From NCBI GenBank assembly GCA_934869045.1, contig CAKXAF010000002.1:1-37539 (forward strand): 37,539 bases of DNA, read 5' to 3'. Made by a program: the position numbers and the translations under genes. This stretch comes from an uncultured Nitrososphaerota archaeon. Lineage in GTDB: Bacteria > Bacillota > Clostridia > Oscillospirales > Ruminococcaceae. Positions 1 to 33,613 of the stretch are shown piece after piece; positions within the stretch are counted from its first letter, which is position 1; every line of letters starts with the position of its first letter. The notes under the pieces are model-generated. The model saw only the letters and a program-made list of their open reading frames with translations, searched no databases and was not told the DNA's origin.

Positions 1-1530
1 GCGTTCGAGTGGTTCTGCTGGGAGTAGATTCAGCGTGACTTCCCGACATCTCCCCTGCGTCTGTTCAAAGTCATCCTCAGTCTGAGAGATACAGTCCGTT
101 CCCCACAGATAGGTCGCGCATTCAAAGTGATGATAGAGGCTGCGGTAGTCCAGATTGATGGTGCCGACAACAGCCTCCCGGTCGTCACAGACAAAGACCT
201 TGGCATGTACGAAGCCGGGGGTGTATTCGTAGATCTTCACCCCGGATTCCAGCAGGGATCTGTAATGGGTCAGCGCAAGGGCAAAGGGGATGTACTTATC
301 TGGAACACCAGGCAGGATGATCCGCACATCAACACCGCGCTCGGCGGCATACTTGAGCGCATTTTCCAGCTCACCGTCCAAAATCAGATATGGCGTCATG
401 ATATGGACATACTTCTGGGCCCGGTTCAGCATATCCATGTAGACCTGTTCGCCCACCTTGTCCTTGTCCAAGGGGCAGTCTCCGTAAGGCATGACAAAAC
501 CGTTTGCAGCCTGCTGCTTTGCCGGTACATTCAGAAATGTGTCAAAATCCGGTGCCTTTTCATCCAAGTACCACATGTGCAGGAACATCCTGGTGAAGCT
601 GCGGGCTGCTTCGCCCTTTACCATCACGGCGGTGTCCTTCCAGTGACCGTACTTTTCATAGGCGTTGATGTATTCATCCGCCAGATTGATGCCGCCGTTG
701 AAGGCGGTCTCCCCGTCGATCACCAGGATCTTCCGGTGATCGCGGTAGTTATAATGGGTGGAGACAAAGGGCTTGATGGGGGCAAACATTTTGCTTTGAA
801 TGCCAAGAGATCGAAGCCGCCTGGGGTAGTCATGGGGCAGGGTAGACAGCTCACAGGTGCCGTCGTAGAGCATACGGACCTCCACGCCCTCTTTGGCCTT
901 CCGCGCCAGGATCTCCAGGATCTTGCCCCACATTTCCCCCTCATCCACGATGAAGTACTCCAGGAAGATGAACCGCTTTGCCTGCTCCAGCTGGATCAGC
1001 ATCTCCCGGAACTTGTCCTCGCCTAGTGGGAAATAGGTGACGGCAGTATGGTCATAGACCGGATAGCATCCACTGCGCTGAACATAGCGGGCAAGCGCCG
1101 CGGCTCCGGGGTCGGACTGCCCCAGGGCCTGAGCTGTCTCCGGGGACTGGACAAGGGTTTCCGCAGTTTCCGTATTCAATTCCGCATAGCGCTTTTTCAG
1201 AGCCCGGTGGCCAATGTTTTTCTGGGTGTAAAGAAACAGCAGGGCGCCGAACACCGGCAGGAGCATGACCACCACCAGCCACGTGATCTTGGCGGTGGGG
1301 TCCATAGCGCTGTTGAGCAGATACAGTACCATAAAAAACGTGAAGATTACAACGCCGCCGTAAATGTGGGGCAGGAAGGCCTCGAACCAGTGAAAGATGC
1401 TGAACAGGAACAGCACCTGCATGGCCAGCAGGACGAGGATCAATCCAGAGCGGCTGAAGATCACCCGGAAAATCCCCCGCTTGCCCTTTTCCAAAAGGTG
1501 TATCCCTGCTTTTTTGGAATTCTCTTTCAT
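1..1530 (-). CDS. cls: Cardiolipin synthase (phospholipase D superfamily), host gene; C-terminus lies beyond the left window edge
   Basis: Absent from the ORF track because there is no stop inside the window. Manual translation of the minus strand from ATG at 1530 gives MKENSKKAGIHLLEKGKRGIFRVIFSRSGLILVLLAMQVLFLF..., with hydrophobic N-terminal segments. Two HKD motifs lie in the same frame: YRDHRKILVIDGETAFNGGINL (His codon 736-738) and FVHAKVFVCDDREAVVGTINLDYRS (His codon 205-207). The frame stays open to position 1. Confidence 0.85.
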   Translation of the reverse strand, partial: MKENSKKAGIHLLEKGKRGIFRVIFSRSGLILVLLAMQVLFLFSIFHWFEAFLPHIYGGVVIFTFFMVLYLLNSAMDPTAKITWLVVVMLLPVFGALLFLYTQKNIGHRALKKRYAELNTETAETLVQSPETAQALGQSDPGAAALARYVQRSGCYPVYDHTAVTYFPLGEDKFREMLIQLEQAKRFIFLEYFIVDEGEMWGKILEILARKAKEGVEVRMLYDGTCELSTLPHDYPRRLRSLGIQSKMFAPIKPFVSTHYNYRDHRKILVIDGETAFNGGINLADEYINAYEKYGHWKDTAVMVKGEAARSFTRMFLHMWYLDEKAPDFDTFLNVPAKQQAANGFVMPYGDCPLDKDKVGEQVYMDMLNRAQKYVHIMTPYLILDGELENALKYAAERGVDVRIILPGVPDKYIPFALALTHYRSLLESGVKIYEYTPGFVHAKVFVCDDREAVVGTINLDYRSLYHHFECATYLWGTDCISQTEDDFEQTQGRCREVTLNLLPAEPLER

Positions 1531-2190: not shown

Positions 2191-2676
2191 TCAGGCGCCC
2201 ATGACTTCCTCAATCGTGCCAAGATCCGTCCACTTCACATTGATCATCCCCGGCTCCCACACATTGTTGTCCTGCCCAGATCGCCACACATGGCCGTTGT
2301 GGGTGCAACAATTTCCCGTCATGTACGGGCTCGTGGACATGGCGACGAAGGGGAGGGCCTTCTTAGGATCATCCGACCAGTAGAACCCCCACTGGGCGGG
2401 CAGTTCCTCCGGCTCCTGGGGGTAGGTGTCGCTGTTGTAGTTTTGGATAAGGCGCACAATACGCCCAGCCGAAGATCGGCACAGGAACCCGTCCGTCTTG
2501 CCGGCCTTGCGCTCCAGCATGTTCTTCTTGGCGACCGCGGCGGAGAAGTCGGGAATATAATCCTCTTTCTCGTACAGTTCGGTGCCCGTCATGCCCTCGG
2601 AAGTCTCCTGCAAATCCTGGGCCCGGCGCATGCCGTATTCCCGCATAGTGATCAGCACAAACTCCTTGTCAGTCAA
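2191..2676 (-). CDS. Phage protein with a possible C-terminal carbohydrate-binding (CBM5/12-like) motif
   Basis: 161-aa ORF with a TTG start 9 nt after GGAAGGAG, overlapping the upstream stop (GTTGACTGA). The C-terminus YMTGNCCTHNGHVWRSGQDNNVWEPGMINVKWTDLG resembles the aromatic Y..G..v..nG.vw.s...N.W.P pattern of small chitin/carbohydrate-binding modules seen in phage tail accessory proteins. This is recognition by eye only. Confidence 0.55.
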   Translation of the reverse strand: MTDKEFVLITMREYGMRRAQDLQETSEGMTGTELYEKEDYIPDFSAAVAKKNMLERKAGKTDGFLCRSSAGRIVRLIQNYNSDTYPQEPEELPAQWGFYWSDDPKKALPFVAMSTSPYMTGNCCTHNGHVWRSGQDNNVWEPGMINVKWTDLGTIEEVMGA

Positions 2677-2998
2677 CTCCGTTCACTCCTTCCCGAATCG
2701 CATTGGCCAGTTCCACATAGGATGCCAGCTCTTTCTGAGCACGATACCGAGCCTCGTTGCTGAGGTCGATCTCATTGTCCATGCCTTTCTTCAGGAACTC
2801 CTCATAGTTGTCCCGGACATTCTGGACAATGCCGTCCCAGGTTTCCACCTCCACATGGTACTCGTCGTACTCATATCCGGCGAACTCCTCGGTCTCTGCC
2901 GGTTTCACATTTTGAAACAGCCGCACAAGGCTTCGGTTGGTTCCCGGGATCTGCTCCACGGTAAACTTCCCCGGATCGACCATTCCCTGTACTTTCAT
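2669..2998 (-). CDS. Small acidic phage protein, unknown function
   Basis: The track ORF 2669-3136 is trimmed to the internal ATG at 2998 (MKVQGMVDPGKF...). That ATG is preceded by AAAGGAG at 9 nt, and this start avoids overlap with the RT gene ending at 3013. Length is 109 aa. Confidence 0.6.
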   Translation of the reverse strand: MKVQGMVDPGKFTVEQIPGTNRSLVRLFQNVKPAETEEFAGYEYDEYHVEVETWDGIVQNVRDNYEEFLKKGMDNEIDLSNEARYRAQKELASYVELANAIREGVNGVD

Positions 2999-3012
2999 AG
3001 GTGCCACTCCTT

Positions 3013-4188
3013 TCAGGCCGCCCGATAAGGCGGATATAATCGTTGCAGCCGCCGACATTCCCTTCGGACGACTTTCTTGAGATTGAACATGGTATTCGGC
3101 TGGTAATACCGTTCCAATATTCGCTGACTGTTGCACTTGCGGAGCTGCCCCAGTCTTGAGATCAGTCCGGACGCCCTCTTGAACGAGATGACCCGGTTCC
3201 GGTCTCTCCGATGGTAGTAGATGTGCAGCGCCCGCTTGAGCCGAAACAGGTTGTGCTTTCGGAGGATCGTGTACCCATGCCCGAAACGATAGCCCAAGGC
3301 AGACGGAATTCTTGGCCGGCGGTGCCGCTGCTTTTTCTCAGGCAGGGCGTCGTGGACTTTCTCCACTCTCGGCGTAAAACCAACCCGGAAGATCTGCCAA
3401 TTTCCCTTCAACCGCAAGCCCACCTCGGCCAACCATGCCCGGATGTCCTCCAGCAGCCGCCTCAGCTTCCGCTTATTGGAGCTGAAGATGGTGAAGTTAT
3501 CCATCTGCCGCAGATAGTGGCTCACGCCATATTGCTTTTGGTGAATCATCAGATCCAGCGGCTGGAGCAGCAGATGCAGGAACCATGCGGAGAAGAACGC
3601 GCCGATCAGGACTCCATACTCCATCAGCGCGTCGTACAGCCAGAGCGTTTCCCGGTCCTTGAACAGACGTTTCAGCGCATGGATGACATACGGCGGGTCC
3701 ACCTCCACAAAGCAGTGGTGAATATCGCACTCCGCGCAGTATTGGGTGCCCACAGGGTCGTTCTTCATCCATTTCTTCAAAACCTTTACGCCATAGGAGT
3801 TGCCGCGCCCCGGCACGCTTGCGATGCAATACTTGTCCATGCTCCGCCTGATATGTGGAATCATGGGCTGCACCACCGCATGGTGGACATACTGGTCCGG
3901 CCACAAAAGCGGCTCATTGATATCCCGCCATTTCCCTTTGCCGCTATCCGCGTTCCGGTCCCATTTCCGCCGTTGCAGGGGTTTATGCATATGCTCGTCC
4001 CCGGTCACCAGGTCTTCGATGAACTTGCGAAGTTTCTTCACATATTCATCCTTGTTGGCCTCGATCTCCATGACCTTCTTATTCAGCGTGTGGTCGCCGT
4101 TGCGCCGGTGTCCCCGGTTGACCTCATCGATTGCCAAATAAAGATTTTCATCGGAAATGATTTGTTGGTAAATTCTAACTCGTTTCAT
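3013..4188 (-). CDS. Reverse transcriptase of a diversity-generating retroelement (atypical catalytic box)
   Basis: RT motifs are readable in the translation: WPDQYVHHAVVQPMIPHI (motif 2-like), VPGRGNSYGV, CDIHHCFVEVD (motif A Asp), GVLIGAFFSAWFLHLLLQPLD (motif B), YLRQMDNFTIFS (motif C position), GLRLKGNWQIF (D) and LGYRFGHGYTILR (E). The gene lies 221 nt downstream of the template repeat. Start is taken as ATG 4188 (AAGGAGG 13 nt upstream); the track start at 4218 is a GTG. Confidence 0.85.
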   Translation of the reverse strand: MKRVRIYQQIISDENLYLAIDEVNRGHRRNGDHTLNKKVMEIEANKDEYVKKLRKFIEDLVTGDEHMHKPLQRRKWDRNADSGKGKWRDINEPLLWPDQYVHHAVVQPMIPHIRRSMDKYCIASVPGRGNSYGVKVLKKWMKNDPVGTQYCAECDIHHCFVEVDPPYVIHALKRLFKDRETLWLYDALMEYGVLIGAFFSAWFLHLLLQPLDLMIHQKQYGVSHYLRQMDNFTIFSSNKRKLRRLLEDIRAWLAEVGLRLKGNWQIFRVGFTPRVEKVHDALPEKKQRHRRPRIPSALGYRFGHGYTILRKHNLFRLKRALHIYYHRRDRNRVISFKRASGLISRLGQLRKCNSQRILERYYQPNTMFNLKKVVRRECRRLQRLYPPYRAA

Positions 4189-4409
4189 CAGGGATAGTGT
4201 TCCTCCTTGTAGCCTCACAACTGTTCCATCGCCGCGGGTGGTTCCGGGGCGGGACCCGGCCCGAAGTGTACTAAGCTGTGTCCTGACGGCTCATCTTCAG
4301 CAAGTGCTGCGCGGTCAACGATGCGTAATAGAAAGGGTGAGGAACCCTGACTACCAAAAGGAGGTTTAGCCATACCCGACAGGCCCTTCGACCTGCGTCT
4401 GCTTCAAGA

Positions 4410-4551
4410 AGGCGACAGCCGATGTTGGAGTTGGAGTTCGACGTGTTGTTGTAGTTCACGTAGAAAGGTCCGTGATTCTGGTTCTGGTTATAGTTACCGC
4501 CATGGTGCAGGCACGGGTTACCACCGTTGAAATTCCAGTTATCCGGGACAT
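4410..4551 (-). repeat. DGR template repeat (TR), non-coding
   Basis: 142 bp aligning with 4736-4877 at a constant offset of 326 (124/142 identical). In the VR frame it reads DNWNFNGGNPCLHHGGNYNQNQNHGPFYVNYNNTSNSNSNIGCRL, which is rich in AAC Asn codons as expected for a TR. Confidence 0.9.
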
Positions 4552-4629
4552 CGTCTGCTGCAAAGTTGACCCCGCGCTTTCCCCTTACCAAAGGAAAAGC
4601 GGTTTATAAGAGCGAAATCGCTCCATTTT

Positions 4630-4689
4630 GAAATTAAGAAACAGCGGAGGTTGGGGGAAGGGACTGCGGTCCCCTCACCCCAAACCCCC
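4630..4689 (-). terminator. Candidate intrinsic terminator after the DGR target gene
   Basis: A long imperfect GC-rich hairpin spans 4646-4689 (about 18 pairs, CGCA loop on the minus strand). On the minus strand it is followed by GCTGTTTCTTAATTTC. It starts 19 nt after the stop at 4708. Confidence 0.5.
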
Positions 4690-4707
4690 TCCTCGCCAGG
4701 GGAATGG

Positions 4708-7446
4708 TCACGCCGCCTTCGGCGGGCGCTCCTGGAGGCGACAGCCGATGCTGGAGTTGGAGTTCGACGCGTTGCCGCAGTACACGTAGAAAAGCCCGTG
4801 ACTCCGGTTCTGGTAATAGTAACCGCCATGGTACAGGCACGGGTAACCACCGCTGAAATACCAGACATCCGGGACATAGGTAGTCGTACTGCCAGAAGAT
4901 TCGGTGGGGTAGAGCGCCCACTCCAGACCGCTTTGAGTCGGGATAGTGAAATTGCTGGGGTAACCGGCGGTCGGCTTGCCCACCAGGACCCCGTTGGCGC
5001 TGTCGCTGAACTGGTTGGGATTCTTGATGACGTTCAGGCCGCTGCTGTTGTAATAGCACCCGTCCATCCAGTCGTACACGTTGTCCCACCAGCCCTCAAT
5101 GTTCCGGTACTGGCAGAATCCGTAGGAATCCCGGCTGGCCGCCGTGGTTCCCGTGTGGTACTGCATGGCGTCCGTCTTGCCGTTGTTCTCCTCGGAGCCG
5201 CTGGCCGAACAGCCCAGGCCGATGCGCTCGCCGTTCCAGTCTGCAAACTCCACCAGGAACAGCATGTTCACATACCAGAACTGGGCAAAGTCCATCTGCC
5301 AGATGTTCGTCCCCAGATTGTGGATATTGGTGCGGGCAATGGAACGGGTGATGTTGACCATCTGCGCCTGATTGGTCTCCGATTTCCAGTTGGAGCCGCA
5401 GTGGTACCGGCCGATGTAGGAGTGATCCAGCTCGCCCAAGCCATCGCCCCGATCCATATTCACAGGGTCCACATGGAACCCCTCAACAGGGCCGTCCGCG
5501 ATTTGCAGCTTCAACTTCTTCCCCGTCTTGGTCCACTTGAACCAATACTTGGGCTCCTTCACCATCACACCACCGGTCCGGGTAACCTTGGTCATGTCCC
5601 TCCACGGGTACAGGTTGTCAAATGGAGAGGAGCCGGAGCCATTATTCACTGCCGGATTGGGGTCGCCGAACCCGGTCGCCCCGTCCGTGCGCTTTCCCTT
5701 GGTGGAGCCGCTGCTGGTCCAATCCCACTCCACGCCGTAGATGGTGACGAACTGAGCCTTGACCTGTACCTGCTTGTCCGCGCCGGCCAGATAGTTGCCC
5801 CCCTCTGCCACCTTGACGGTAATTGTGGTGGTGCCTGTGGTGTCCTTTACACTGTTCACCGTCACCTCCCCCGTGATCTGATTGACGTTGCTCACGGTAG
5901 CCACACTCTGATTGTTGGAGATGGCGGAGATCACACCGTCCCCTTTCCGGGTCACCGTGAATTTGGCGCTTCGGGCGCTGGTGTTCAGGGTCACAGCCGC
6001 GGGGTTTACCGTCACCACCTGATCGCCCTTGGCGATGGACCAGGTCGCGGTCTTGCCGCCCACTTCGCCGTCCCACCACTGATGGTTGGAGTCCGGTGTA
6101 AAGGTGGCGGTGTATCCCGTCCCGGCGTTGATTTGGGGCTCCACCGAAACAGTCATCTTATTGCTGTCATAGTTGCTGTCCCAGGACGGGGTCTTGGGGT
6201 TGCCGTCGTACTTCGGCACGCTGCTCTGCTTTGGCACCGCCGCCAGGCTGGCCCGGCCAATGGTCCAGTTTACCGTCTTCTTCCCGGTGGTGCCGTCCGA
6301 CCACATGCCTTTCAGCAGGGTAAAGGTGGCGGTATGGGTGCCCGCGTTGGTCTGGGGTGTCACCGATACCGAGGAATTCTCCTGGTCAAAGTTGTCCCAC
6401 TCTGGCGTCTGCGGCGCGCCCGTATAAACGGGAGAGCCCTTCTGCACCGGGATGGGTACGATGACGCTGGTGATGGTCCAGATGACCTCCTTGGCCCCGG
6501 TGGAGCCGTCCCACCACTTGTAGTTGGGCGTGGGGGTAAAGGTGGCGGTATAGTCCTTGGCCTCTGTGCCGAACCGCTCTCCGCCGATGGTCAGCTTGCT
6601 GGTGTCATAGTTGTCCCAGGTGGGGGACTGGGGCTTTCCATTGGCCGCCAGCGCATTGCTCTGCTTCGGCGGCGAAGCGATGACCGCCCGGTCGATGACC
6701 CAGCTTACGGTCGCCTCATTCTGCCCTCCGGGGAATACATAGCCATAGTCCAGAACAAACTTGGCGGAATAGGTGCCTGCATTGACGCCATTGGTTTCTC
6801 CGGAAATGGTCATCTTTCCGGTGTCATATCCGGTCCACGCCGGCGTCTTGGTCTCTCCGTCATAGGTCAGAACTCCATTTTGAACCGGGACGGCCACCTC
6901 GATGGGGTTCACCGTCACCGTCAGGCTTGCGGTCTTGGTCACGCCCTCGTAGGCGTACTGGATCTGCACTGCCTGCTGCCCCAGTGCGGAGAACGCGTCC
7001 GGGGAGTGGGTGTATCCGGAGACTTCCTCCGAGGATTCGTCCGAATAAGTGGCTGTGACCACCATTCCGGCCGGATCAAAGGTCTCCAGATACTGGTATG
7101 TCATCTTTGTCGGGTTTGCCGTGATGGCGATGGACACCAGCACCTTCTTCACTGTCACGGGTACGCTGGCCGTCTTGGTGATCCGCCCCTCCGTGTAAGT
7201 AATGGTCACCTCCGTGACCCCATCCGTCAGAACCTGAGGCGAAACGGTGTAGCCGGTCACGTCTGAAGTAAGACCGTACCCATAGCCCGCCGTGACCACC
7301 ATGCCGGTCGGGTCAAAGGACTCCCCGGACTTATAGATTGTCTTGTTGGGCTGCTTGGTAATTGCCAGGGTCTCCAGCTTCAGAGCGCCGCCGCCACCGT
7401 TGCCGCCGGTCATGTTGAAAACCTTGCCGACGTTAGCGTTACTCAT
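4708..7446 (-). CDS. DGR target: tail fibre / receptor-binding protein with Ig-like repeats and a C-terminal C-type-lectin/FGE-like variable domain
   Basis: 912-aa ORF whose ATG overlaps the upstream stop (ATGAGTAA). It has two ~79-aa Ig-like repeats (..KQPNKTIYKSGESFDPTGMVVTAGY.. and ..NPTKMTYQYLETFDPAGMVVTATY..), four ~70-aa repeats, and a Big_2-like segment. The C-terminus ..WYFSGGYPCLYHGGYYYQNRSHGLFYVYCGNASNSNSSIGCRLQ is typical of DGR variable proteins. Confidence 0.85.
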   Translation of the reverse strand: MSNANVGKVFNMTGGNGGGGALKLETLAITKQPNKTIYKSGESFDPTGMVVTAGYGYGLTSDVTGYTVSPQVLTDGVTEVTITYTEGRITKTASVPVTVKKVLVSIAITANPTKMTYQYLETFDPAGMVVTATYSDESSEEVSGYTHSPDAFSALGQQAVQIQYAYEGVTKTASLTVTVNPIEVAVPVQNGVLTYDGETKTPAWTGYDTGKMTISGETNGVNAGTYSAKFVLDYGYVFPGGQNEATVSWVIDRAVIASPPKQSNALAANGKPQSPTWDNYDTSKLTIGGERFGTEAKDYTATFTPTPNYKWWDGSTGAKEVIWTITSVIVPIPVQKGSPVYTGAPQTPEWDNFDQENSSVSVTPQTNAGTHTATFTLLKGMWSDGTTGKKTVNWTIGRASLAAVPKQSSVPKYDGNPKTPSWDSNYDSNKMTVSVEPQINAGTGYTATFTPDSNHQWWDGEVGGKTATWSIAKGDQVVTVNPAAVTLNTSARSAKFTVTRKGDGVISAISNNQSVATVSNVNQITGEVTVNSVKDTTGTTTITVKVAEGGNYLAGADKQVQVKAQFVTIYGVEWDWTSSGSTKGKRTDGATGFGDPNPAVNNGSGSSPFDNLYPWRDMTKVTRTGGVMVKEPKYWFKWTKTGKKLKLQIADGPVEGFHVDPVNMDRGDGLGELDHSYIGRYHCGSNWKSETNQAQMVNITRSIARTNIHNLGTNIWQMDFAQFWYVNMLFLVEFADWNGERIGLGCSASGSEENNGKTDAMQYHTGTTAASRDSYGFCQYRNIEGWWDNVYDWMDGCYYNSSGLNVIKNPNQFSDSANGVLVGKPTAGYPSNFTIPTQSGLEWALYPTESSGSTTTYVPDVWYFSGGYPCLYHGGYYYQNRSHGLFYVYCGNASNSNSSIGCRLQERPPKAA
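4736..4877 (-). repeat. DGR variable repeat (VR) at the 3' end of the 912-aa fibre gene
   Basis: Partner of the TR. There are 18 mismatches, and 16 of them fall where the TR has A on the coding strand (10 A>G, 6 A>T). The VR ends 28 nt before the stop codon of ORF 4708-7446. Confidence 0.9.
6028..6894 (-). repeat. Four in-frame tandem ~70-73-aa repeats inside the DGR target
   Basis: Residues ~185-473 carry units such as VPVQNGVLTYDGETKTPAWTGYDTGKMTISGETNGVNAGTYSAKF.., PPKQSNALAANGKPQSPTWDNYDTSKLTIGGERFGTEAKDYTATF.., IPVQKGSPVYTGAPQTPEWDNFDQENSSVSVTPQTNAGTHTATF.. and VPKQSSVPKYDGNPKTPSWDSNYDSNKMTVSVEPQINAGTGYTATF.. Confidence 0.75.
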
Positions 7447-7828
7447 TGCTCTGCTCGACCTCCAGTCGCAAAATAGAAATCGTCAGGTTCTCCGTGGGGG
7501 TGACCTCGCACCGGAACGTGACCTGACCGTCCGTTGTAATGTTATCGGCTTTTACGCCGGTCTCGCTTGCCGCCATAAAGCAGTCTGCGTCGGCGCACAC
7601 AATGTACCAGTATTTTCCGTCAGCCAGGAGGAACTCGTCCTGCACGGTTTGAGCTCTGCCGCTCCACTTCTCGGCCGGCAGAGTGACGGTGATGCCGGCA
7701 TGCTGCGCGCTTTCCAGCAGAGGGATCATCGAGTCCAATAGTTCGTTGATGCGGATCAGGGTGTCCTGTTTCCCTCGCTCTGCCAGTGCCCGTAACTGCT
7801 CTATGGTGGTGAGTTGTTTCTCTGCCAT
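7439..7828 (-). CDS. Phage protein of unknown function, translationally coupled to the DGR target
   Basis: The track ORF is trimmed to ATG 7828 (MAEKQLTTIEQLRALAERGK...), which has AAGGAG 7 nt upstream. Length is 129 aa. Its stop overlaps the fibre gene start. Confidence 0.65.
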   Translation of the reverse strand: MAEKQLTTIEQLRALAERGKQDTLIRINELLDSMIPLLESAQHAGITVTLPAEKWSGRAQTVQDEFLLADGKYWYIVCADADCFMAASETGVKADNITTDGQVTFRCEVTPTENLTISILRLEVEQSNE

Positions 7829-7852
7829 ATGAGAGCTCCTTTCGGGAAATAT

Positions 7853-7887
7853 AAAAAGGGGGACGGGAATCTGTGCCCCCATCCCCC
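7853..7887 (-). terminator. Rho-independent terminator after the 330-aa fibre gene
   Basis: The minus strand reads GGGGGAtGGGggcacagattCCCgTCCCCC followed by TTTTT (hairpin 7858-7887, T-tract 7853-7857). Confidence 0.7.
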
Positions 7888-7900
7888 TTAACGGAGCCAT

Positions 7901-8893
7901 TTAAGGCTCCTCTTCAGTGGTGCCGAAGACCTCATCCAGCATGGATTGCACCTCGGTGTCCTCAGCCACAGCCATGCCGTCCAGCTTCTTCTTGTCCTCC
8001 TTGGACATCAGGCCGTCGGCTGCGGAAGTAGCCTTCTCATAGGTGGTGTCCTGGCCGGGGATGCCCAGCTTGGTGATATCCTCCTTGGTCACGTTGTCGC
8101 CCAGCACCACATGGCCGCTGGCGTCGCTGCCCACCTTCTTGAATCCGGCCTCCACGGCGGAGCCGGCGGGGTGGGTGTAGACCACGGTCTCCTGGCCGTT
8201 GATCTTGATGTTGCCATTGGTCTCGGACTTCTCCACCTTGGTCGCGCCCTGGGCGATGCCGGCCATGGCGGCGGTGATCTTGCCCTCGATGGCGGCCATC
8301 ACGGTGGCGTAGTCGTCCTCCTCACCGCCGATACCGGCGGTGATCTCGTTGAGCTTGGTGATGGCGGCGTTCATGGCGGAAGCGTCGTCCGGGTGTTCCT
8401 GAATCCAGGCGGCAATCTCGGCCAGGGTGTTCAGGGACTCCTGGGCGTCCTCGGGAATCAGCTGCTTGGCCAGCTCCTCATTGGCAATGGTGCGGGCACT
8501 CTTGCCGGCGTCGCTGCCGATCAAGGTGTCCACATCCGCCTTGGGGGCCTTGGCGGCCAGAACGGCAGTCAGGGCAGAGTCCAGGTCGGCCTCAGACACC
8601 TGGGCCTTGTAGGCCAGGGCAGCCAGACCCTTGACAGGCACGTCGATACCATTCACCGCCAGAGTGCCGTTGGCGGCGCCAGTGGCGATCAGGATATCGA
8701 CGACCTTGTCAACGATTTTCAGGGCGGTGCCGTTGACCTTGACGCCCTCCAGGACGTTGGCCTGGCCGCCCGCGCCTTCCAGCGTGTCCACTCGGCCGGA
8801 CAGGGTTGCCACCTTGGAGTCGACCTTATCGATCTCGCCCTTGGTGCGCTGGGCCAGCATCTTCAGCTGGTCAAGAGTAGTGTGCTTAGACAT
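7901..8893 (-). CDS. Tail fibre-like protein
   Basis: 330 aa, ATG with AAGGAGG 8 nt upstream. Motifs common in phage fibre proteins are present: NTLAEIAAWIQEHPDD and GLMSKEDKKKLDG. It ends with an acidic tag, VAEDTEVQSMLDEVFGTTEEEP. Confidence 0.7.
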   Translation of the reverse strand: MSKHTTLDQLKMLAQRTKGEIDKVDSKVATLSGRVDTLEGAGGQANVLEGVKVNGTALKIVDKVVDILIATGAANGTLAVNGIDVPVKGLAALAYKAQVSEADLDSALTAVLAAKAPKADVDTLIGSDAGKSARTIANEELAKQLIPEDAQESLNTLAEIAAWIQEHPDDASAMNAAITKLNEITAGIGGEEDDYATVMAAIEGKITAAMAGIAQGATKVEKSETNGNIKINGQETVVYTHPAGSAVEAGFKKVGSDASGHVVLGDNVTKEDITKLGIPGQDTTYEKATSAADGLMSKEDKKKLDGMAVAEDTEVQSMLDEVFGTTEEEP

Positions 8894-14205: not shown

Positions 14206-17200
14206 TTAGTTCCCCCTTCCTCTGCGCGTGACCCTCTGCCCGAGGGCGTTGTCCATGGGTCCTGCCATCTCGCCCACCAGCGTGCCGGTATCCAGGACCA
14301 CACGCATCCGTTCCATTCGCTCCGTCATTTCTGCCATTTCACTCCGAAGGGCGCGGAGCTCCTCCACAATGTCGCCGTTGTCCACGTTGACCACCGTTCC
14401 GCCGCTTCGGCCGGACTCGGCAAAGGCCAGGCTGGCCTGCCCCGCAAGGCCGATGGTCCGCTGGGGATAGAACAGGCTGTTCAGCTCGTCCGCCCCGCGC
14501 ATTACGTCGGAGAGGTCGAGGACCGGCCGGATCGTAGGCTGAGCATCCATATCCCCGCTGAGCAGCTCGGCCGTGATGGACATGGCGTTGGAAAGGCCGT
14601 CTGCGGCGTACTCCGCCACATTCGCCCCCGCAGCGTAGGACTTCTTCGCGTAGTCTGCCAGTCCCGTCACAAAGCCAAGCCCCGTAAAGTTGCCCAGCTC
14701 CCGGAAGACCCGAGAGGGAGAGTTGATTTTCAGCGTACTCTTGACCGCCTCTACGCCGGCCAGCGCCATGCTGGTCAGTTCGTCGAGGAAGGCGGATTTC
14801 GATAGGGAGACGCCCTCCGCAAGACCGGCGGGGATCTGCTGTCCCGTCTCGGTCCATCCGGCTTCCTTCAGGATCTTCGTGGCCGCCTCGGTCATTTCCC
14901 GCATCTCGGCCTCGGTGTCCTTCTTGATCAAGCCCACGTTTTCCGCGAACTCCTGCCGGAGCGACGCCAGTTGATCGGCTGTGTCCTCTTCCAACTGGGA
15001 CAATTCCTCCTGCCAAGTAATGCGGTACTCCTCCAGCTCCGCTTCCGCGTCGGCCCGCAGCTGAGCGATCTGCTCCTGGGTTTCCACGCGGAGGCCTTCC
15101 AGCTCCGAGGTGGCCTGTTCCCGGGCCTGAGCGTGCTTGACGGACCAAAGGGAGACGTACTTCTCCAGCTCGTCGTCGCTCATGGAGTTCAGCGCCCGGA
15201 TCTCTTCGATGGCGGATGGTCCCATCTCCTGGAGTTCGGAAATCAGGTCCGCGTCAACCCCCCTGGCGGAAAGCTGGCCCAGAATATCCTGCCATTCGCC
15301 GAACTCCTGTACCTGCCCCTCCAGGTTCTTCATCAGGGTATCGCTGCTGACGGCCTCCTTCTTTGTAACTTCATCGAAAAGGCCGTAGGACTGGTAGAGA
15401 CTGTTGGTGCGGGATTCCACCGCGTTCTGATACTGGTCGTTCAGCGACTGAATATCCCGTTCCAGCTGCTCATTGACAGAGCGAACCTTGTCGGCATACT
15501 CCTGCTCCAGCTGGATGCGCTTCTGGTTGGCGGACTCCTGAACGCTCTGGACGTCGGCGATATACTGCTTCTGGGCCTCATAGATCTCCTGCTCCAGTTG
15601 ATAGACCTTCAGGTCCATCTCCTCGCGCTCTTTGCTGCCCGCCGCATACCGGCTCTGAACACGCTTATAGGCGGCCAACTCGTCCGCCAGGCTCATTCGG
15701 CCGTAGTTCTTCTCCTTCTCGATCCAGTCCATGGAATTCTGATAGGACTCGTCCACAAGCTGGTTGCGAAGGGTATAGACCTCCCGGTCGATCTTCTTGC
15801 GTTCCTCGCTGCCCTCCATATACCGGGACTGCATCCGCTCATAGGCGGCCAGTTCCTCCTCGGTGCTCAGCCGGTTGTAGTATTTCTCCTCCTCGATCCA
15901 ATCGAGGGAAGCCTGATAGGTGGACGCCACCAGTTCATTTTGAAGCTGATAGACCTCCCGGTCGATCTGCTTCCGCTCCTCAGAACCGGCTTTGTACCGC
16001 TTCTGAAGGTTTTCCCATCCGACCAGCTGGTCTTTCAAACTCAGCTCGTCGTAATAGGTCTTCTCGTCCACCCAGTCCTTCCAGGCGTCGATGCCTTTGC
16101 TGCTGACGGCGATGACCTCGCCGATCATGTCGGAAGTGGCCTGGGCGGCCGGGACGATGCTATTGTCGACGCCGATGGCCAGGCCCTCACCGATGTTCTC
16201 GCCCAAATAGATGAACTCCCGGGAGGGAGAATGGCTGTCCAGGGCCTTTTTCGCCGCGTTCAGCGCGGCAAGGCCCAGACTGCGGCCCGCGGAGCTGGAG
16301 GCGCTGAACTTAGAGCGGATACCTTTGACAAAGCCCTGTCCGGCATTTTCACCGGCAGTCTCAAACTCGGGCTTCATGCTGTTGATTTGGGATACGGCCG
16401 CAGATGCCACCGTCCCCGCTGCCGTTTTTACGGCGCCGGAAGACGATAGGATCGAAACGGCGAGATTCCGCATCATGCCCTCAACTGCGGACTCAATCAC
16501 AACGACCTTTTTGTCTACAATATCCGCCATTGACTCCACAAGCGTCTCCATGGCGGAGCTTGCCACCGGGATATTCGACGTGATGGAACCGCGGACGGAG
16601 GTCAGCATACTGACCACGGCGCTGTTTACGGTGCCGCCGCAGTTGTAGAAGGCGTCGGCGAATCCGGAAATCCCGGCGTCGCCCATCTTCTTCATACTGT
16701 CGGCGAATTTGGTCAGGCCGCTGGTATTGACGCCGTTTACCCCTTCCGCCAGCTCGATCAGATCCCAGACCTGGGTGATGACGTCGGACAACTTGCCGAG
16801 GTCAATACCGGAAATCTCATTGTAGTAATCCTTCATGGAGGCGCCGAATTTGGAAATATCCGCGCCAAAGGACGCCAGCGTCTGATCCCCGCCGAACCAC
16901 TGGTCGAACAGGCTGCTGTCCGGAAGGCCGGTCGCCAGATTGGAAAGCGCGCTCGCAGCATTGGCCGAGGCCGTTACCGCTTCCGGCTTCACATCCTTGA
17001 TGGCCTCCGCATAGGCGGCCAGATCTGCGCCGAAGGCCGTGAGGTCGTCTCCAAAGGCAGCCAGATCGGTTCCTCCTGTAAAGAAGGAGAGCAGCCCGCC
17101 CGTATTGGGTAAGGTATTCGCCAGTTCCACCAGCGCCTGACCGGCGGAGGCGGAACTTTCCACGGCAGTGGGATTGATGTCGGCCACAGCGTCGCTGTAA

Positions 17201-20200
17201 GACTTCATGGCCGCGCCGAAGGGGATGATCCCGGCGGCAAAGGCGGCCAGATCATGGCTTCCATTGAAAAACTCCATGACTCCGCCCGCCAGGGGAAGGG
17301 ATTCTTGCAGCCTTGCCAGGGACTGGGCCGCCACAGCCGAGGCGGTGATAGCCCCGGTGTTGATGTCCGCCACGGCGTCTCCGTAGGACTTCATAGCCGC
17401 GCCGAAGGGGACAATACCCGCGGCAAAGATGCCAAGGTCGTTGCCGCCATCAAAGAAGGTCATCACACCGCCCACATTGGGCAGGTCGGTCTGAAGCTGT
17501 GCCAGGGACTGGGCGGCAACCGCAGAAGCCGTGATCGCCTCGGCGTTGATACCGGCTACGGCTTCCCCATAGGATTTCATGGCCGCGCCAAAGGGCACAA
17601 TGCCCTCCGAGAATTTACCGAGATCGTTTCCTCCCGTGAAGAACTCCATAACCCCGCCAACCTGCGGCAAAGCAGCCTGAAGTTTTGCCAACGACTGGGC
17701 GGCGACTCCAGACGCCTCCACGGCGCCGGCGTTGATACCGGCCACAGCCTCTCCATAGGACTTCATGGCCTCACCAAAGGGGATGACGCCCTCAGAGAAT
17801 GTTTCAAGGTCGTTCCCGCCGGTGAAAAACTCCATGATGCCGCCCACGTTGGGCAGGGATGCTTGCAGCTCCGCCAGGGCCTGCGCTGCCACAGCCGAGG
17901 CGGAGACCGCGCCGGCGTCAATGCCGGAAACAGCGCCGCCATAGGATTTCATGGCCAAGCCAAAGGAGAGAACTCCATCCGCAAAGGCCCCAAGGTCGTT
18001 TCCGCCGGTGAAGAATTCCAGCACCCCGCCCACATGGGGAAGAGACGCCTGAAGCGCGGAGAGGGCCTGGGCCGCGGTAATGGAGGCGGAAACAGCGCCC
18101 GCGTCCAACCCGGTCACGGAATCGGCATAGGCTTTCATCCCTTCCCCGAAGGGGAGCAGACCGTTTGCGAAGGTCTCCAAATCGTTACCTCCGGTGAAGA
18201 AGTCCACCACCCCGCCGATATTGGGAAGGGAGGCTTGCAGCTCTGCCAGCGCCTTTGCCGCAGTGGCGGAAGCGGTGACCGCTTCACTGTCCATGCCGGT
18301 CACGCTGTCGGAATAAGCCTTCATCGCCTCTCCAAAGGGAACCAACTGATCGCCAAAGGTCTCCAAATCGTTGTCGCCCGTGAAGAATGCGACCAGACCT
18401 CCGGTATTCGGAATGGTGTTTGCCAGCTCCACCAAAGTTTTTCCGGCAATGGCCGAGTTCGCAACCGCGTCGCTATCCAAACCGCTGACCGATTTTGAAT
18501 AATTCTTCATGGAGACGCCAAAGGAGGCAAGCTGCGCTCCGAAGGTCGCCATATCGTTGTCGCCGGCAAAGAAAGCGACAGCGCCTCCCGTGTTCGGGAG
18601 CGTGGCCGCCAGCTCCGCCATGGCCTGCCCGGCGATGGCTGAGTTCTTAACCGCGTCCACATCCAGTCCGGTCACCGCGTCAGAGTAGGCTTTGATGGCC
18701 TCTCCAAAGAGGACCAGCTGGTCGCCGAACGCGCTCATATCGTTGTCACCGGCAAAGAAAGCCACGGCTCCGCCTGTATTGGGCAGGGTAGCCGCCATTT
18801 CCGCCATGGCCTTCCCCGCGATGGCGGCATTGTTTACCGCGTCGGCGTCCAGCCCTTTGATGCTTGCAGCAAACCGCATCATGGACCCGCCGAAACCAAC
18901 CAGCTGGTTTCCAAACTCGTCCATGTCATTTTCGCCGGTGAAGAACCCCGCGATGCCGCCGCGGTTCGGCAGGGTCGCCGCCATTTCGGCCAGTGTCTTT
19001 CCGGCAATCGCGGCCGTGCTGACCAAATTGCCGTCAAGGCCGGCGATGCTGTTGGAAAATTTCATCATCGCCTCACCGAAGGGGACAAGCTCCCCGGCAA
19101 AGGCGGATAGGGAAGAACCGCCCGTCAGCCAGGAGGTCAGCCCTTCCAGCAGATCAGCGGCAGTAATCAGCAAAATCGCCTCGGTAAGCGCCTTTACACC
19201 ATCCAGCATGGCGGCGTCAATGCCACGGGCTCCATCGATAAACGGCTGCACGTTGGTCATGAACGCCGCGAGATCGGCGCCGATCTGCGGGAACGATCCG
19301 GATATGCCGCCCATAAACCCGCCGACAATACCGCCGATAAATCCGCCAATGGCGTTTCCGATGGTTTGCAGCAGCTTGCCGCCTTCCCCAATCAGCCAGT
19401 CGAGGCCGGGAATCTGCGCCAGGCCTCCAATGGCCGCCAGAACAACGGCAAGTTCCGCCATAACGACGCCCAGGCCAAGCACACCCACCATTGCGGAGGG
19501 AATCAGCCCGGCCAACGCGCCGAGGGCCACCATAATGCCGCTGAGAAGCCCGATCCCGACGACGCCTTTCAGAAGGGCGTCCGTGTCGATGCTCCCCAGG
19601 GCGGATACGATTCCGGAGAAGAAGGACATCAGCAAATTGACCACCGACTGGATCAGTGTCGGCAGATTGCGCGCCAAGCCGTCGATGACTTCGATCAGGA
19701 ACTGCATGATAGAATCCACGATCTGCGGCGTATAGGCCGCCAGCGCCGCAAGGACTCCGGCAATCAGCTCCAGAGCCCCGTTGGCAATCGCGGGCACACA
19801 CTCCACCAGGACGTCCACCAGGGTGAGCACCAGCGCTTTGACCGCGTTTCCAATCGCCGGGGCGCCATTGGTGATGACTCCGGCAAAGGCGATGACCGCC
19901 TCGCCCAGCTGTTGGGCAATCGCAGGGATTAGCGCGGCAATACCCGTGATAATGGACGTCAACCCGGCCACAATGATGGTCACGCCTGCCCCCAGGGAGG
20001 TAGCCAGGCCCGTGATGCCGACCGCGATGGCGGTGAGCCCAGTCCCAACCAGAAGAAGCCCCGCCCCAAGGCCGGCAATGCCGACGCCAATCAAAGCAAA
20101 CGCGCCGCCCAGCCCGAGAATGGTGGGGAGCAGCGGCGTGAGAAGCGCGCCGGCCGTCCCAATCACCGTAAAGGCTCCGGCAACGGTAATCAGCCCCTTG

Positions 20201-23200
20201 GCGATGGCCTCCCAGCTCATGCTTCCCAGGGTAAAGAGCACCGGGGTCAAAACCGCCAAAGCGCTTGCGGCTACCAGCATAGCGGCGGAACCGGCCAGTG
20301 TTCCGTTCATAAAATTCAAACCGACCGCCAGCTCGGCCAGAGCGCCGCCCATGGCAACCAGGCTTTTCGCAATGGCCTCCCAGCTCATGCCCCCCATTTT
20401 TCCGAGGGCCTCCGCCAAGACATTCAGCGCCGCTCCAACTGTGACAAGCCCCGCGCCCGTGGTAATCAAGTTCTTCGGCATGGCTTTCATGGCGATCGCC
20501 ACTTCCGCCAAGGCCCCGCCCATGGCCAGCAAGCCCTTCCCGATCTCCGCCAAAAACATGCCGCCGAAGTCCGCCATCGCAGAAGCAAATATCTTCATGG
20601 CCGCGCCGATCTCAATCATGGCAAGACCAGTGGAGATAAGCCCCTGTGCATTTCCAGTCAGTTTTGTGAATGCGGTAATCTCCAAAAGGACAGCTCCAAC
20701 AGAGCTCAGCCCCTTCACCAGCTCGCCCGCATTCATCTGCCCAAAATCCTTGCAGGCGGAGGCAAAGACCTTCATAGCGCTGGCCAGAACCAGAATCCCG
20801 GCCGCAGTAGCCATGGCGCCCTTGTTGACCTTAACCGTGTTCGTGAATAGAGAAACCTCCGCCATCAGAACGCCGACTCCGGTCAAGCCCTTTGCCACCC
20901 CGGCAAAGTCCAGCTGGGCCAGGTCGATACAGGCGGAGGCAAGCATTTTGATTGCGCCGGCAAACACCACCATCTGGGCGGACCCCTTGATGACGGAGCT
21001 GGAACCGCTCCCCAAAACTTTGGCCGCAGCCACCAGCGCGGTCATCAGCCCGGCGATCCCGGCAAGGGCCACGACCATCTGCTCCGGCTCGATATCGGAG
21101 ATTTTCTTCAGGGCGGAGGCCAGCAGAAGAACTGAGGTGGAAACGCCAATCATAGCCGCAGTGCCTTTAACGACACCCTTGACTTCTCCACTAATACGAC
21201 TAAAGATGGCCATGGAAGCCATCAATTCCGCAAACAGTACGGTAATGGCGCCCAGAGAAGCGGTCAGCTTGCCGCTGTCAATCAGAGAAATGGTTACGAT
21301 CGCGGCCGCCAGCACGGCAATAGCGGAGGCGATTTTCAGAAGGGTTCCAGCCTTCAGCTGGGTCTGATAGGCTTCAAAGCAGCCCCGCACCCCGTCCAAA
21401 ATACCCTTTACATTGTCAAGAAGGCCGCCGACATCGTCGAAAGACTTTGTCAGGCTGTTCATGAACTTGGTGATGCCTACCGCGATTCCGCCCAGAGAAA
21501 TGCCGTTGAGTAAATCAATCACTCCGCTGAAATCAGCGTTGCCAATGGCGTCTATCAGCGTGGCGGACAAGCCGCCGAGCACGCCGATGATTCCGCTGGC
21601 AATGGTTTTCACGCCGTTGAACAGGCTCTGAAGCATTTGCAGGAATTTGCTGTTTCCAACGGCGGAATCCATGGTATTTACCGCATCGTCCACCCCAAAT
21701 CCCAGGCCGCCGACTGCGTCGATCACCTGGCCGATTCGGGTCTGGATGCGGCCGAGAAGCGCCTGGAACGCCTCGAAGCCGGGGATGGCAAAGACGTCGC
21801 CGAGAAACCCGATAAAGGTTTGGATTCCTGATACAACGAAACCCAGAGCATCCGCGATACCCTGGGCCACTTTACTGAAGACTTTACCTTTCTTTGCCGC
21901 GTCGTTGATGCCGGTCAGAAAATCGCCAATCGCGGCGGTCACCGTAAGAAGACCATCTGCTAGGGACCCTATGCCTCCAGCCATAGGCATGACCGCGTTG
22001 ACCACCGCCATAATTGCCTGACGGCCCAAATCCAGCATGGAAAAGAGCCCTTTGAAGGTCCGCTGCAATTTATCCGCTGTTTCATCCGAAATCGTCAACC
22101 GCTCGGAAAAGCTCCGCAGCGTCTCCGTCAGCGCGTAGAGCTGGTCGGAAGTGGCGGGCGGAAAAATATCGCGGAACGCATCCTTGATCGGGGCGATAAC
22201 GCTTACCAATCCCTTGGCCGCGTTCCAGACCGACTGGATCAGGTTCTCCCGGCCGGAGGGGCGCAGAATCTTCTCCGTAAACTCATCCATGGAGACGGAG
22301 CCATCCCGAAGACTGTCGGCCAGCGTTTCGATCTGCTCCACCATCTCCGAGGTGTATCCGGCGGCCTTGCGCTCCTCCTGGGACATGCCGGACATCTTTC
22401 CCTGGAGATGATAGACCGCCTCGGACAAGGTTTCAGAGGAGATTACTCCATCCTTCAACCCCTGCTTCAGCGCGTCAGTAAAGCTGTCCGAATCCGCTAC
22501 CAGCTGGTCAAAGGCGTCGCCGCTCTCTCTGGCGACTGCTTGGATCGACTCTATAAAACCCGCTTCATCGGCAATTCCCTGATCCAGCAGCTGTTTCCAG
22601 CCGGAACTCAAGCCGCCGCTGAGCAGTTCGTTTCTCGCCTGGGCGGACTCGCCGATGATGCCGCCGATGGTGTTGAATACTTCCGTCAACAGCGCTTTTG
22701 CCTCGTCAAAGTCGCCAACCAGAATCTCCCACGTCTCGGTCCATCCCGACTGGGCGCTCTCCTTCAAGGTGTCCCATAGCTGGGTAAAGGTTTTCACCTT
22801 CGTAGCGGCGTCCTCTGCCGTCTGTGCCATCTGGGCAATTTCCTTTGCCTGGGCCTCCGTAAAGCCCTGCTGCACCAGATCCGCCTCGGTATATGCGCCG
22901 GCAAACTGCTTCAGGGTCTCCGTGAGGACTTCCGTGGTGAGCCACTCGCCCCTGGTAAGGGATTCCCGGAAGGAACCATACATATTGATGGCATTCTGGG
23001 CTCCGGTGCCCAGCAGCTCGGATGTGCGGACCAGGGCGTCCTGGAACACCTTGCCGCCCATGCCCGCGTTGACCACCGAGTTCCAGTCCATCAGGGACAC
23101 TCTGCCTGCGGCCAGCGCCTGGGAGAGCTGATACATGGCTGTGGACGCCTGCTGGGAGGTGGAGCCGGAAATGGCGGCCAGGTTCGCGATACCCTTGATG

Positions 23201-23733: not shown

Positions 23734-24107
23734 GACCGTGTGACCTCCTTCCATGCGTAATCTGCGATCTGGTCAAAAATAGGCTGGATAGCAGGGTTGA
23801 TGTAATCTCTTCCCTGTACCCAGCCTCCGGTCCCAGTGCCATGTCCGTATTGCAGGATAATGGCAATGGGAACTCCATTTTGAACATTTGAATTGTGAAA
23901 CGAGATGGTGACGGTGTTGTCCCTGTTGGTAATTTTGTAATACCAGGACGCGGCCGTCTCTCCGGAGTCAACAGGCGTTGCAGACGCAAGGGCGGCCACG
24001 CCTTCCCGGCCAAACTTGTCCAGATCGCCGAGATGAACCGTCTCCTTTGCTCTTTCCAGAAATCGGGTCAGCTTGGAAAAATCGCCCTTGTGTCTGAAAC
24101 GAATCAC
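23730..24107 (-). CDS. HK97 gp10-like tail/head-tail joining component
   Basis: 125 aa with a GTG start 6 nt after GGGAGGAG. The pattern ..ATPVDSGETAASWYYKI......ILQYGHGT......DYINPAIQPIF resembles the HK97 gp10 family (V.tG.l..S....., .YGT, ...PF..pA). Confidence 0.6.
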   Translation of the reverse strand: MIRFRHKGDFSKLTRFLERAKETVHLGDLDKFGREGVAALASATPVDSGETAASWYYKITNRDNTVTISFHNSNVQNGVPIAIILQYGHGTGTGGWVQGRDYINPAIQPIFDQIADYAWKEVTRS

Positions 24108-24442: not shown

Positions 24443-24796
24443 TTAAATTGCCGGGCTCTCCACAGAGCCAACCGGTGTCTGCGAAACATTTACATTGAAA
24501 TTGGACGCCTTCGCCGTTTCAAAAGTGATTCCGCCCTCCCGGTGGTCGGACTTGCACAGGTTCAGATAGAAACTGCACACCACGCCATGGGCCGTCCAGG
24601 GCAGACCGACCATAGCGCCGATCCAGGGCAACGCTCCCATATACCCCTTATAGACACAGTAGAAGGCCAATAAAAAACCGCCGATGGTCACGATCCACAA
24701 CAGCGGACGGATATCGGCGATCATCCATTTTGAAAACTGCGAAAGGTCAGGTTTTCTTCCAGATTTGCCTCTGGTCCGGCTTCGCCTGCTTTTCAT
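24443..24796 (-). CDS. Second holin-like small membrane protein
   Basis: The track ORF is trimmed to the ATG at 24796, which overlaps the endolysin stop (TGATG). Length is 117 aa. A basic N-terminus (MKSRRSRTRGKSGRK) is followed by hydrophobic helices LLWIVTIGGFLLAFYCVY and LPWIGAMVGLPWTAHGVVCSFYL. Confidence 0.55.
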   Translation of the reverse strand: MKSRRSRTRGKSGRKPDLSQFSKWMIADIRPLLWIVTIGGFLLAFYCVYKGYMGALPWIGAMVGLPWTAHGVVCSFYLNLCKSDHREGGITFETAKASNFNVNVSQTPVGSVESPAI

Positions 24797-33589: not shown

Positions 33590-33595
33590 AAGTAT

Positions 33596-33613
33596 CCCCC
33601 CCCCCTTTTTTTT
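33596..33613. repeat. Homopolymer tract C10T8 (minus strand A8G10) at the terminase / protein C junction
   Basis: C x10 at 33596-33605 and T x8 at 33606-33613. The terminase TAA stop (33612-33614) overlaps the A-run. The G-run is the only SD-like element for ATG 33589. Confidence 0.9.

Follow-up and report, generated by a model that had tools for sequence, protein, structure and literature searches.

A diversity-generating retroelement, in all likelihood active, with a non-canonical reverse transcriptase at the tail-fibre end of a gut Clostridia prophage

Does the region at positions 3013 to 7446 of contig CAKXAF010000002.1, a stretch of 37,539 nucleotides (nt) hereafter called the window, hold a diversity-generating retroelement (DGR) that still rewrites its target, given that its reverse transcriptase (RT) departs from the canonical active site? 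An earlier interpretation made from the letters of the window (the sequence-only reading) had proposed a complete DGR targeting the distal tail fibre. The analysis described here indicates, with high confidence, that the region is an active DGR lying at the tail-fibre end of a prophage; the phage is of siphovirus type and its host a gut bacterium of the Clostridia, Oscillospiraceae-type. The DGR interpretation is upheld by an adenine bias in every related locus, an RT resembling the Bordetella phage BPP-1 enzyme (bRT), variability restricted to the variable repeat, and a lectin-type fold in the target. The core features are as follows, with protein lengths in amino acids (aa).

4410-4551, minus strand: template repeat (TR), 142 nt with 41 adenines, mostly in AAC codons
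4736-4877, minus strand: variable repeat (VR), coding for residues 857-904 of the 912-aa target
3013..4188, minus strand: DGR reverse transcriptase, 391 aa, pI 10.2; RVT_1 (Pfam), phrog_1423
4708..7446, minus strand: DGR target gene, 912 aa; N-terminal Ig-like (Big_3) repeats and a C-terminal variable ligand-binding domain

The window contains a single long direct repeat, identified by repeat search as the TR and VR, which are 87% identical over 142 nt without gaps and whose likeness breaks off sharply at both ends. From TR to VR, 18 positions mismatch on the coding (minus) strand, comprising 10 A>G, 6 A>T and 2 C>T changes. Changed bases account for 16 of the 41 TR adenines and for 2 of the 101 other positions (Fisher odds ratio 31.7, p = 1.9e-8). 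The coordinates of both repeats, their gap-free alignment, the 16 adenine mismatches out of 18 and the two translations given by the sequence-only reading were all reproduced, as was the placement of the VR at the extreme C-terminus of the 912-aa open reading frame (ORF). A scan of the whole window that scored only non-adenine TR positions matched the TR (101/101) and the VR (99/101) and found no further VR copy, so the element has one VR only.

Related loci coding for relatives of the RT or the TR were gathered from viral contigs (79), genomes (47) and metagenomes (63). Duplicate VRs were removed, and the source assemblies of the loci may share samples. Of the first set, 53 loci have both repeats in register, and in each of these the mismatches lie nearly all at TR adenines. 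The formal alignments give a strong adenine bias for the window and for all related loci. These 53 loci hold 53 distinct VRs and 31 distinct TRs. Column entropy at TR-adenine columns is 1.18 bits for the VR and 0.19 bits for the TR, compared with 0.25 and 0.24 bits at non-adenine columns; unlike the VR, the TR is about equally conserved at both kinds of column (0.19 vs 0.24 bits). The VR is therefore far from invariant, with its variation confined to TR-adenine columns.

The comparison is sharpest between loci whose templates are the same. Among 70 locus pairs with identical TRs, the VRs differ at 49% of adenine columns and at 0.7% of non-adenine columns, against a background in the same pairs of 3.3% in the target gene just upstream and 3.5% in the RT gene. 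Across 92 non-redundant loci, per-site change reaches 43% at adenines and 0.6% at other sites, and 94% of the 1714 mismatches fall at A (A>G 1040, A>T 496, A>C 80). Polymorphism confined to VR positions that match TR adenines, which the sequence-only reading had put forward as a check, is thus seen across samples; the comparison is not one within a single sample. As judged from these loci, the VR has been rewritten repeatedly and recently, with the changes directed at adenines.

The RT gene follows the TR as had been described. Its ORF spans 3013-4218 on the minus strand, and the start was placed at ATG 4188 because homologues begin there, which gives 391 aa, of which the last ~110 (about residues 280-391) form a strongly basic region. 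In a single-sequence search of solved structures (phmmer), Bordetella bRT was the sole match. A 24-sequence family profile also ranked bRT first (58 bits), followed by a group II RT (50 bits), with retron and Drt RTs far lower. The AlphaFold2 (AF2) model of the RT (pLDDT 75.5) had its best Foldseek matches in bRT 8ubd/8ub7 (E 1e-12, TMt 0.70). The lead of bRT over the group II RTs is modest, and the class assignment rests on the profile and fold ranking; with bRT first by sequence and by fold, the enzyme does not group with the RTs of group II introns, retrons or Abi systems. Strong purifying selection is indicated by a dN/dS of 0.05-0.15 against 17 relatives, and some clusters of the RT protein hold >4000 member sequences in human-gut data.

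What sets this RT apart is its active site, where neither [LIV]GxxxSQ nor Y-x-D-D, the hallmarks of the canonical DGR RT family, is present.

3496..3507, minus strand: RT motif C, QMDN in place of YxDD, aligned to YMDD of bRT
3586..3606, minus strand: RT motif B region, IGAFFSA in place of the hallmark [LIV]GxxxSQ, from the alignment to bRT

All RTs that are 36% to 100% identical to the query carry Y[MI]DN or QMDN (~120 loci); QMDN is kept in 82 loci and Y[MI]DN in ~40 more distant ones, and two loci from Oscillospiraceae isolates, L091 and L112, have YMDN. YMDD or YADD is confined to DGR RTs that are more distant still (<= ~32% identity, including those of cultured phages), with LBR48 reading NIDD. 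Motif B reads SA or SS in the query subclade (82 loci) and remains SQ in sister lineages at 36-51% identity; both SA/SS and the Gln of QMDN are derived and belong to the subclade of the query. The xDN motif was absent from all cultured phages among the matches inspected, and a full-text literature search returned no relevant mention of YMDN, QMDN or YxDN motifs. Residue I181 of bRT aligns with the Ile of IGAFFSA and is thus conserved; this residue promotes adenine mutagenesis in bRT (PMC7826257). Conversion of YMDD to SMAA is the usual experimental means of inactivating bRT (PMC12875486).

The identical-TR loci with different VRs fall inside the QMDN subclade, and diversification therefore came after the motif change. 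Conservation of the motif over ~120 loci, low dN/dS and VR diversification within the subclade together argue that the motif does not reflect decay and that the enzyme is active. On this comparative evidence, an RT without the second aspartate is evidently active.

The target closes the series of large tail-module genes, downstream of the tape measure protein (TMP), Dit and tail proteins. Its residues 624-911 match phrog_5302 'tail protein', and Pfam Big_3 matches lie in the N-terminal part.

4711..5649, minus strand: target C-terminal domain, ~313 aa, C-type-lectin/FGE-type fold (AF2 and Foldseek)

By sequence, this domain has no Pfam match, and a 26-sequence profile searched against the PDB returned nothing even at E = 10. 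The AF2 model of the domain (pLDDT 89.7, pTM 0.91) was matched by Foldseek in the PDB to TaqVP 5vf4 (E 4e-8, probability 1.0, TM 0.57), and then to formylglycine-generating enzymes (FGEs), TvpA 2y3c and Mtd 1yu3. The C-type-lectin fold proposed earlier, with Mtd as its paradigm, is therefore supported by a confident model and the fold search, and its nearest relatives are TaqVP and the FGEs rather than Mtd. The domain also resembles predicted viral structures annotated as tail collar fibre and as crAss-like phage tail fibres. It is found in 1742 clusters at 50% identity, and in most of the 150 listed it sits at the extreme C-terminus behind variable N-terminal parts. The term 'distal tail fibre' finds support in the gene position and in homology to proteins annotated as tail or tail-collar-fibre, which is evidence of a kind other than a virion structure. 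Direct repeats with a period of ~219 nt (73 aa) at window positions 6035-6853, inside the target gene, are attributed to tandem Ig-like domains in the fibre shaft.

Two conserved non-coding elements flank the repeats.

4710..4729, minus strand: GC-rich hairpin GCGC-C-CGCC GAA GGCG-GCGT, 6 nt past the VR/TR similarity and overlapping the stop codon
4203..4309, minus strand: spacer RNA, Rfam RT-18 (RF03021), between TR and RT, with the RT Shine-Dalgarno AAGGAG in its 3' end

The GC hairpin is kept after the VR in the main clade, the ~50%-identity clade has another GC hairpin there instead (AAA loop), and none follows the TR in the related loci compared. The 3' ends of the repeats differ in a fixed way, the VR ending in ...GTCGCCTCCAGGA and the TR in ...GTCGCCTTCTTGA, in the manner of the initiation of mutagenic homing (IMH) and IMH* sequences, and the 3' block shared by TR and VR is A-free and IMH-like. 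These features match the hairpin and IMH/IMH* elements reported for BPP-1 (PMC5758913, PMC3240598), by analogy with which the GC hairpin is presumed to be a target-recognition (cruciform) element.

The RT-18 match scores 68.5 bits against a gathering threshold of 41.3, covers the model in full (1-84 of 84) and ends 14 nt before the RT start codon. RT-18 was found at the same place in 13/13 relatives tested (54.7-80.8 bits), including the ~50%-identity clade. Position and co-occurrence across these loci thus point to a tie between RT-18 and this DGR clade. The sister motif RT-10 sits in the TR-RT spacer of BPP-1, and a DGR role for other RT motifs has only been speculated upon (Weinberg et al. 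2017, PMC5737381).

Some further features of these non-coding stretches were observed. A scan of 2900-5000 gave a weak terminator-like site within the spacer at 4334-4348. A perfect 11-bp hairpin (GCTTTTCCTTT GGT AAGGGGAAAGC) at 4576-4600 on the minus strand, ~25 nt upstream of the TR, could be the terminator of the target transcript or a 5' mark of the DGR RNA. In some relatives, a truncated remnant of the target 3' end lies ~2 kb downstream of the RT, past small lysis-region ORFs (L004 3065-3304, a 79-aa ORF; L005 ~3354-3494; L064 ~2255-2396). The remnants in these three loci keep a diversified VR and the GC hairpin and may represent an additional homing site that does not function; no copy of this kind is present in the window.

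Taken together, these parts suggest the following mechanism. The RT encoded just downstream (3013-4188) would bind a transcript spanning the TR (4410-4551) and RT-18 (4203-4309), and would copy the TR into cDNA faithfully except opposite adenines. Directed by the A-free 3' block common to both repeats and by the GC hairpin found only after the VR, the cDNA would then take the place of the VR (4736-4877). In this way ~20 codons would be rewritten in the exposed face of the C-type-lectin/FGE-type domain, and receptor specificity would be changed. The priming of cDNA by the spacer RNA, homing through the IMH and hairpin, and the receptor-binding role are carried over from the BPP-1 paradigm and are probable by analogy.

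Several observations weigh against an active element of this kind. The evidence for activity is comparative, drawn across contigs from different samples and not from this prophage copy itself, and the tail-fibre and receptor-binding role of the target is likewise suggested by analogy. The folding energy of the non-coding elements is no better than that of shuffled sequences (hairpin region z = -0.59, TR-spacer RNA z = -0.17); since these scores are not significant, the hairpin and the spacer RNA are supported by conservation and the Rfam model and not by thermodynamics. The scan of 2900-5000 revealed no sigma-70-like promoter near the TR. The RT has neither the second Asp of YxDD nor the Q of SQ, and loss of that Asp, which retroviral enzymes generally require, is usually crippling in other RTs.

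The last point is the ground for regarding the locus as a relic, whose repeat pattern would record past activity and whose RT would be catalytically dead through the D-to-N change in motif C (QMDN). The lost SQ speaks for the same view. Consistent with a relic, replacing YMDD with SMAA abolishes bRT activity (PMC12875486). However, x-M-D-N has been kept from 36% to 100% identity in ~120 loci under an RT dN/dS of 0.05-0.15, and identical-TR loci within the QMDN subclade differ at 49% of VR adenine columns against a background of ~3%. An xDN motif C is also competent in other polymerases, such as the GDN of mononegaviral L proteins, and a second-Asp mutant of Ty1 RT reportedly retained polymerase activity in vitro. 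A relic is accordingly considered very unlikely.

Diversification could instead occur in trans, the adjacent RT being inactive or otherwise engaged while a canonical YMDD DGR RT elsewhere in the host or in a co-resident prophage copies the TR. Some host metagenome-assembled genomes (MAGs) do hold several related DGR loci, and one Oscillospiraceae MAG yields L081, L097 and L106. However, the co-resident loci that were found also belong to the xDN clade, the RT is under purifying selection, and TR, RT-18 and xDN RT are syntenic in every locus examined. Furthermore, apart from alignment column 45 (see below), the VRs show almost no non-adenine differences from their own TR, and so were not written from a foreign TR. 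Diversification in trans is likewise considered very unlikely. Scarcely any weight remains for the view that no retroelement is present, in which the repeats would be a drifted duplication of the gene 3' end and the RT that of a group II intron, a retron or an Abi/DRT system. Group II RTs are the second-best structural class, and weak NCBIfam matches to a group II maturase, Drt4 and Drt3a were obtained. These matches lie far under their cutoffs (TIGR04416 at 38.8 bits vs 300) or at E > 1e-3 (Drt4, Drt3a), whereas bRT is first by sequence and fold. RT-18 is the sole RNA family found by Rfam in 2500-5500, with no intron or retron RNA. The mismatch spectrum itself refutes an origin by drift, for the alignment is gap-free and its adenine bias (p = 1.9e-8 in the window) is repeated in every relative.

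Within the active DGR favoured here, one template cytosine is about as variable as the adenines.

4507, minus strand: TR cytosine at alignment column 45, codon CAC (His), hypervariable; its VR partner, 4833, is T, codon TAC (Tyr)

Column 45 is mismatched in 21/53 loci, and each other non-adenine column in at most one (<=1) locus. It is changed in 21 of 39 new non-redundant metagenome loci, where the other non-adenine columns reach <=7.7%, and in 6/16 genome loci that share the CTG-CAC context and have RTs of no more than 39-50% identity; the effect was thus reproduced in three independent locus sets. When loci L001-L226 are combined, the VR differs in 46/88 cases with C in the TR (T 39, G 4, A 3) and in 1/23 cases with T in the TR, never to C (C vs T, Fisher p = 1.2e-5). 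Among identical-TR pairs with C at column 45, the VR position differs in 16/24 pairs. Where the TR reads CAC, His is kept in 1/75 VRs, with Arg, Phe and Tyr dominant, and the state of column 46 depends on that of column 45 (R, F, Y dominant). Judging from these sequences, selection clearly acts on the residue at column 45. The second non-adenine mismatch in the window, 4467/4793 (Pro to Leu), recurs in just 1/53 and 2/38 loci and therefore looks like an ordinary substitution.

Four candidate explanations for column 45 were rejected. A change tied to a mispair at the neighbouring A46 showed no association (14/38 vs 7/15). Published template slippage, in which the preceding base is re-used, predicts either a spectrum like that of the A sites, with G commoner than T, or C>A, but T was seen in 39/46 changed loci (85%). 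Cross-homing from a T-bearing TR should bring accompanying non-adenine differences, which are absent. A DNA-level C>T hotspot would act on both repeats, and the TR keeps C in 75/92 main-clade loci (82%) and across deep clades.

Two accounts of the cytosine remain to be weighed. The C>T change may arise by ordinary point mutation after homing and be fixed by very strong selection for Phe/Tyr, and we give this close to an even chance. Selection at the residue is evident from the single VR in 75 that keeps His, all available sequences are post-selection, C>T is the commonest spontaneous change, and the loci show a synonymous background divergence that cannot be neglected. However, each homing event would reset the base to C, and the A sites are saturated against a background of ~3%; the other non-adenine columns peak at 2.4-7.7%. 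The change is also one-directional (46/88 with TR C vs 1/23 with TR T), without T>C even though Arg (CGC) is favoured, and it recurs in RT lineages that are only 39-50% identical. Alternatively, C4507 (context CUG-C-ACC) would be miscopied or RNA-edited during retrohoming, mostly to T and about as often as adenines are, which we put forward tentatively as a possible but rather unlikely explanation. The one-directionality, the recurrence and the presumed resetting of the base at each homing event favour a DGR-made change.

How this element compares with known systems is clearest for BPP-1 (mtd-avd-TR-brt). In both, the 3' end of a gene for a tail fibre with a C-type-lectin-fold tip carries the VR, an AAC-codon TR sits just upstream of the RT, and mismatches are adenine-specific. 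Both have a GC hairpin after the VR, differing VR and TR 3' ends and a structured RNA in the TR-RT spacer, and bRT is the closest enzyme to this RT by sequence and fold. However, the window is without avd, the spacer RNA is RT-18 here and RT-10 in BPP-1, and the RT is only ~20% identical to bRT, with QMDN and SA instead of YMDD and SQ. The RT is also longer (391 aa with its basic C-terminal region vs 328 aa), and the target has N-terminal Ig-like repeats and a fold nearer to TaqVP/FGE than to Mtd. As for the spacer, RT-18 was defined beside RT genes and here occupies the position that RT-10 has in BPP-1, although Weinberg et al. (PMC5737381) tied only RT-10 to a DGR. TaqVP of Thermus aquaticus (5vf4), TvpA of Treponema (2y3c) and FGE-type C-type-lectin domains are the best structural matches of the target C-terminal domain, yet share 9-14% identity with it and no profile-level sequence match. 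In the window the domain forms part of a phage fibre protein.

Pfam gave no match to PF05635 (Avd) or another accessory family across the 22 ORFs to which it was applied; for the remaining large structural ORFs the comparison was with PHROGs only. The VR-TR gap of 184 nt (4552-4735) holds no credible ORF, and the small neighbouring ORFs are acidic. The earlier description of the DGR as complete fails in the BPP-1 sense because there is no Avd. However, avd does not define DGRs in general: those without it make up 26-29% of the DGRs surveyed, and the accessory-free TR-RT 'Architecture A1' accounts for 29% (Wu et al. 2017, PMC5758913). The element belongs to this accessory-gene-free 'TR-RT' architecture, which is already known. 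Right after the RT are two small acidic minus-strand ORFs, 2669-2998 (pI 4.5) and 2191-2676 (pI 4.9), syntenic in L004, whose products resemble the 'CH1' accessory proteins reported by Wu et al. from Avd-less DGRs in size and charge, the two traits by which they were likened.

Closer in gene order are Faecalibacterium phage FP_Epona and Butyrivibrio phage Arawn, in which target, VR, TR and RT are likewise followed by lysis genes. Their mismatches are A-only, and, like the element described here, theirs come from phages or prophages whose hosts are Clostridia of the gut or rumen. No gene is annotated between target and RT in either phage, so no Avd is placed there. In contrast, their RTs are only 24-29% identical to the one described here and keep the canonical YMDD and SQ.

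The DGR stands in a siphovirus-type structural module on the minus strand, as assigned by Pfam and PHROGs. The module runs from the large terminase through portal, protease/capsid, major tail protein, tail assembly chaperone and tape measure to Dit and tail proteins, the DGR target, the TR, the RT and small ORFs that include a membrane protein.

1-1530, minus strand: PLD/cardiolipin-synthase-type cellular protein, an ORF running off the window start

This cellular gene places the DGR near the end of an integrated prophage, with the prophage-host junction at ~1530-1700, just past the DGR and lysis end. Genomes with relatives of the RT are those of gut Clostridia, mostly Oscillospiraceae (Lawsonibacter, Oscillibacter, Dysosmobacter and many MAGs), and the host is a gut Oscillospiraceae-type bacterium (Clostridia). 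Megablast of 2500-8000 against 50,697 phage genomes gave no match, and the nearest named phages by tblastn are <42% identical.

Elsewhere in the module, the tape measure gene (14206-23754, minus strand) is exceptionally long (3182 aa), and its product matches several TMP families in series. A 451-aa ORF at 24796-26151 on the minus strand, between the assembly chaperone and the tape measure in the tail module, has endolysin-like domains, and its product may be a tail-associated lysin. The short Pfam motif DUF7211 (~25 aa) starts three otherwise unrelated minus-strand ORFs (36270-36785, 33035-33619 and 32036-32530) and is also recorded for one homologue (P0207) of the target C-terminal domain.

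As a DGR on the tail fibre of a gut prophage, the element adds to a class that is already very large and well surveyed, and similar contigs are abundant in public data. What is unusual here is that a lineage that is active, Avd-less and associated with RT-18 has a conserved xDN/SA active site, together with the hypervariable cytosine. The RT represents a large, abundant clade of evidently active DGR RTs with YMDN or QMDN for YxDD, and the query subclade is also without SQ. A natural, selected xDN enzyme of this kind offers a test of the second aspartate in a low-fidelity, adenine-mutagenic polymerase, and of Avd-independent DGRs. Furthermore, RT-18, so far an orphan motif in Rfam, is given a functional setting by its place in the spacer of a DGR. 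If the cytosine is indeed changed by the DGR, an RT lacking the second catalytic aspartate would be fully competent for cDNA synthesis and homing. The adenine rule, on which DGR-finder criteria and DGR-based protein-evolution tools are built, would then have an exception at one specific site, and the codon repertoire at a key ligand-binding residue would widen from His/Arg/Leu/Pro to include Tyr/Phe/Cys.

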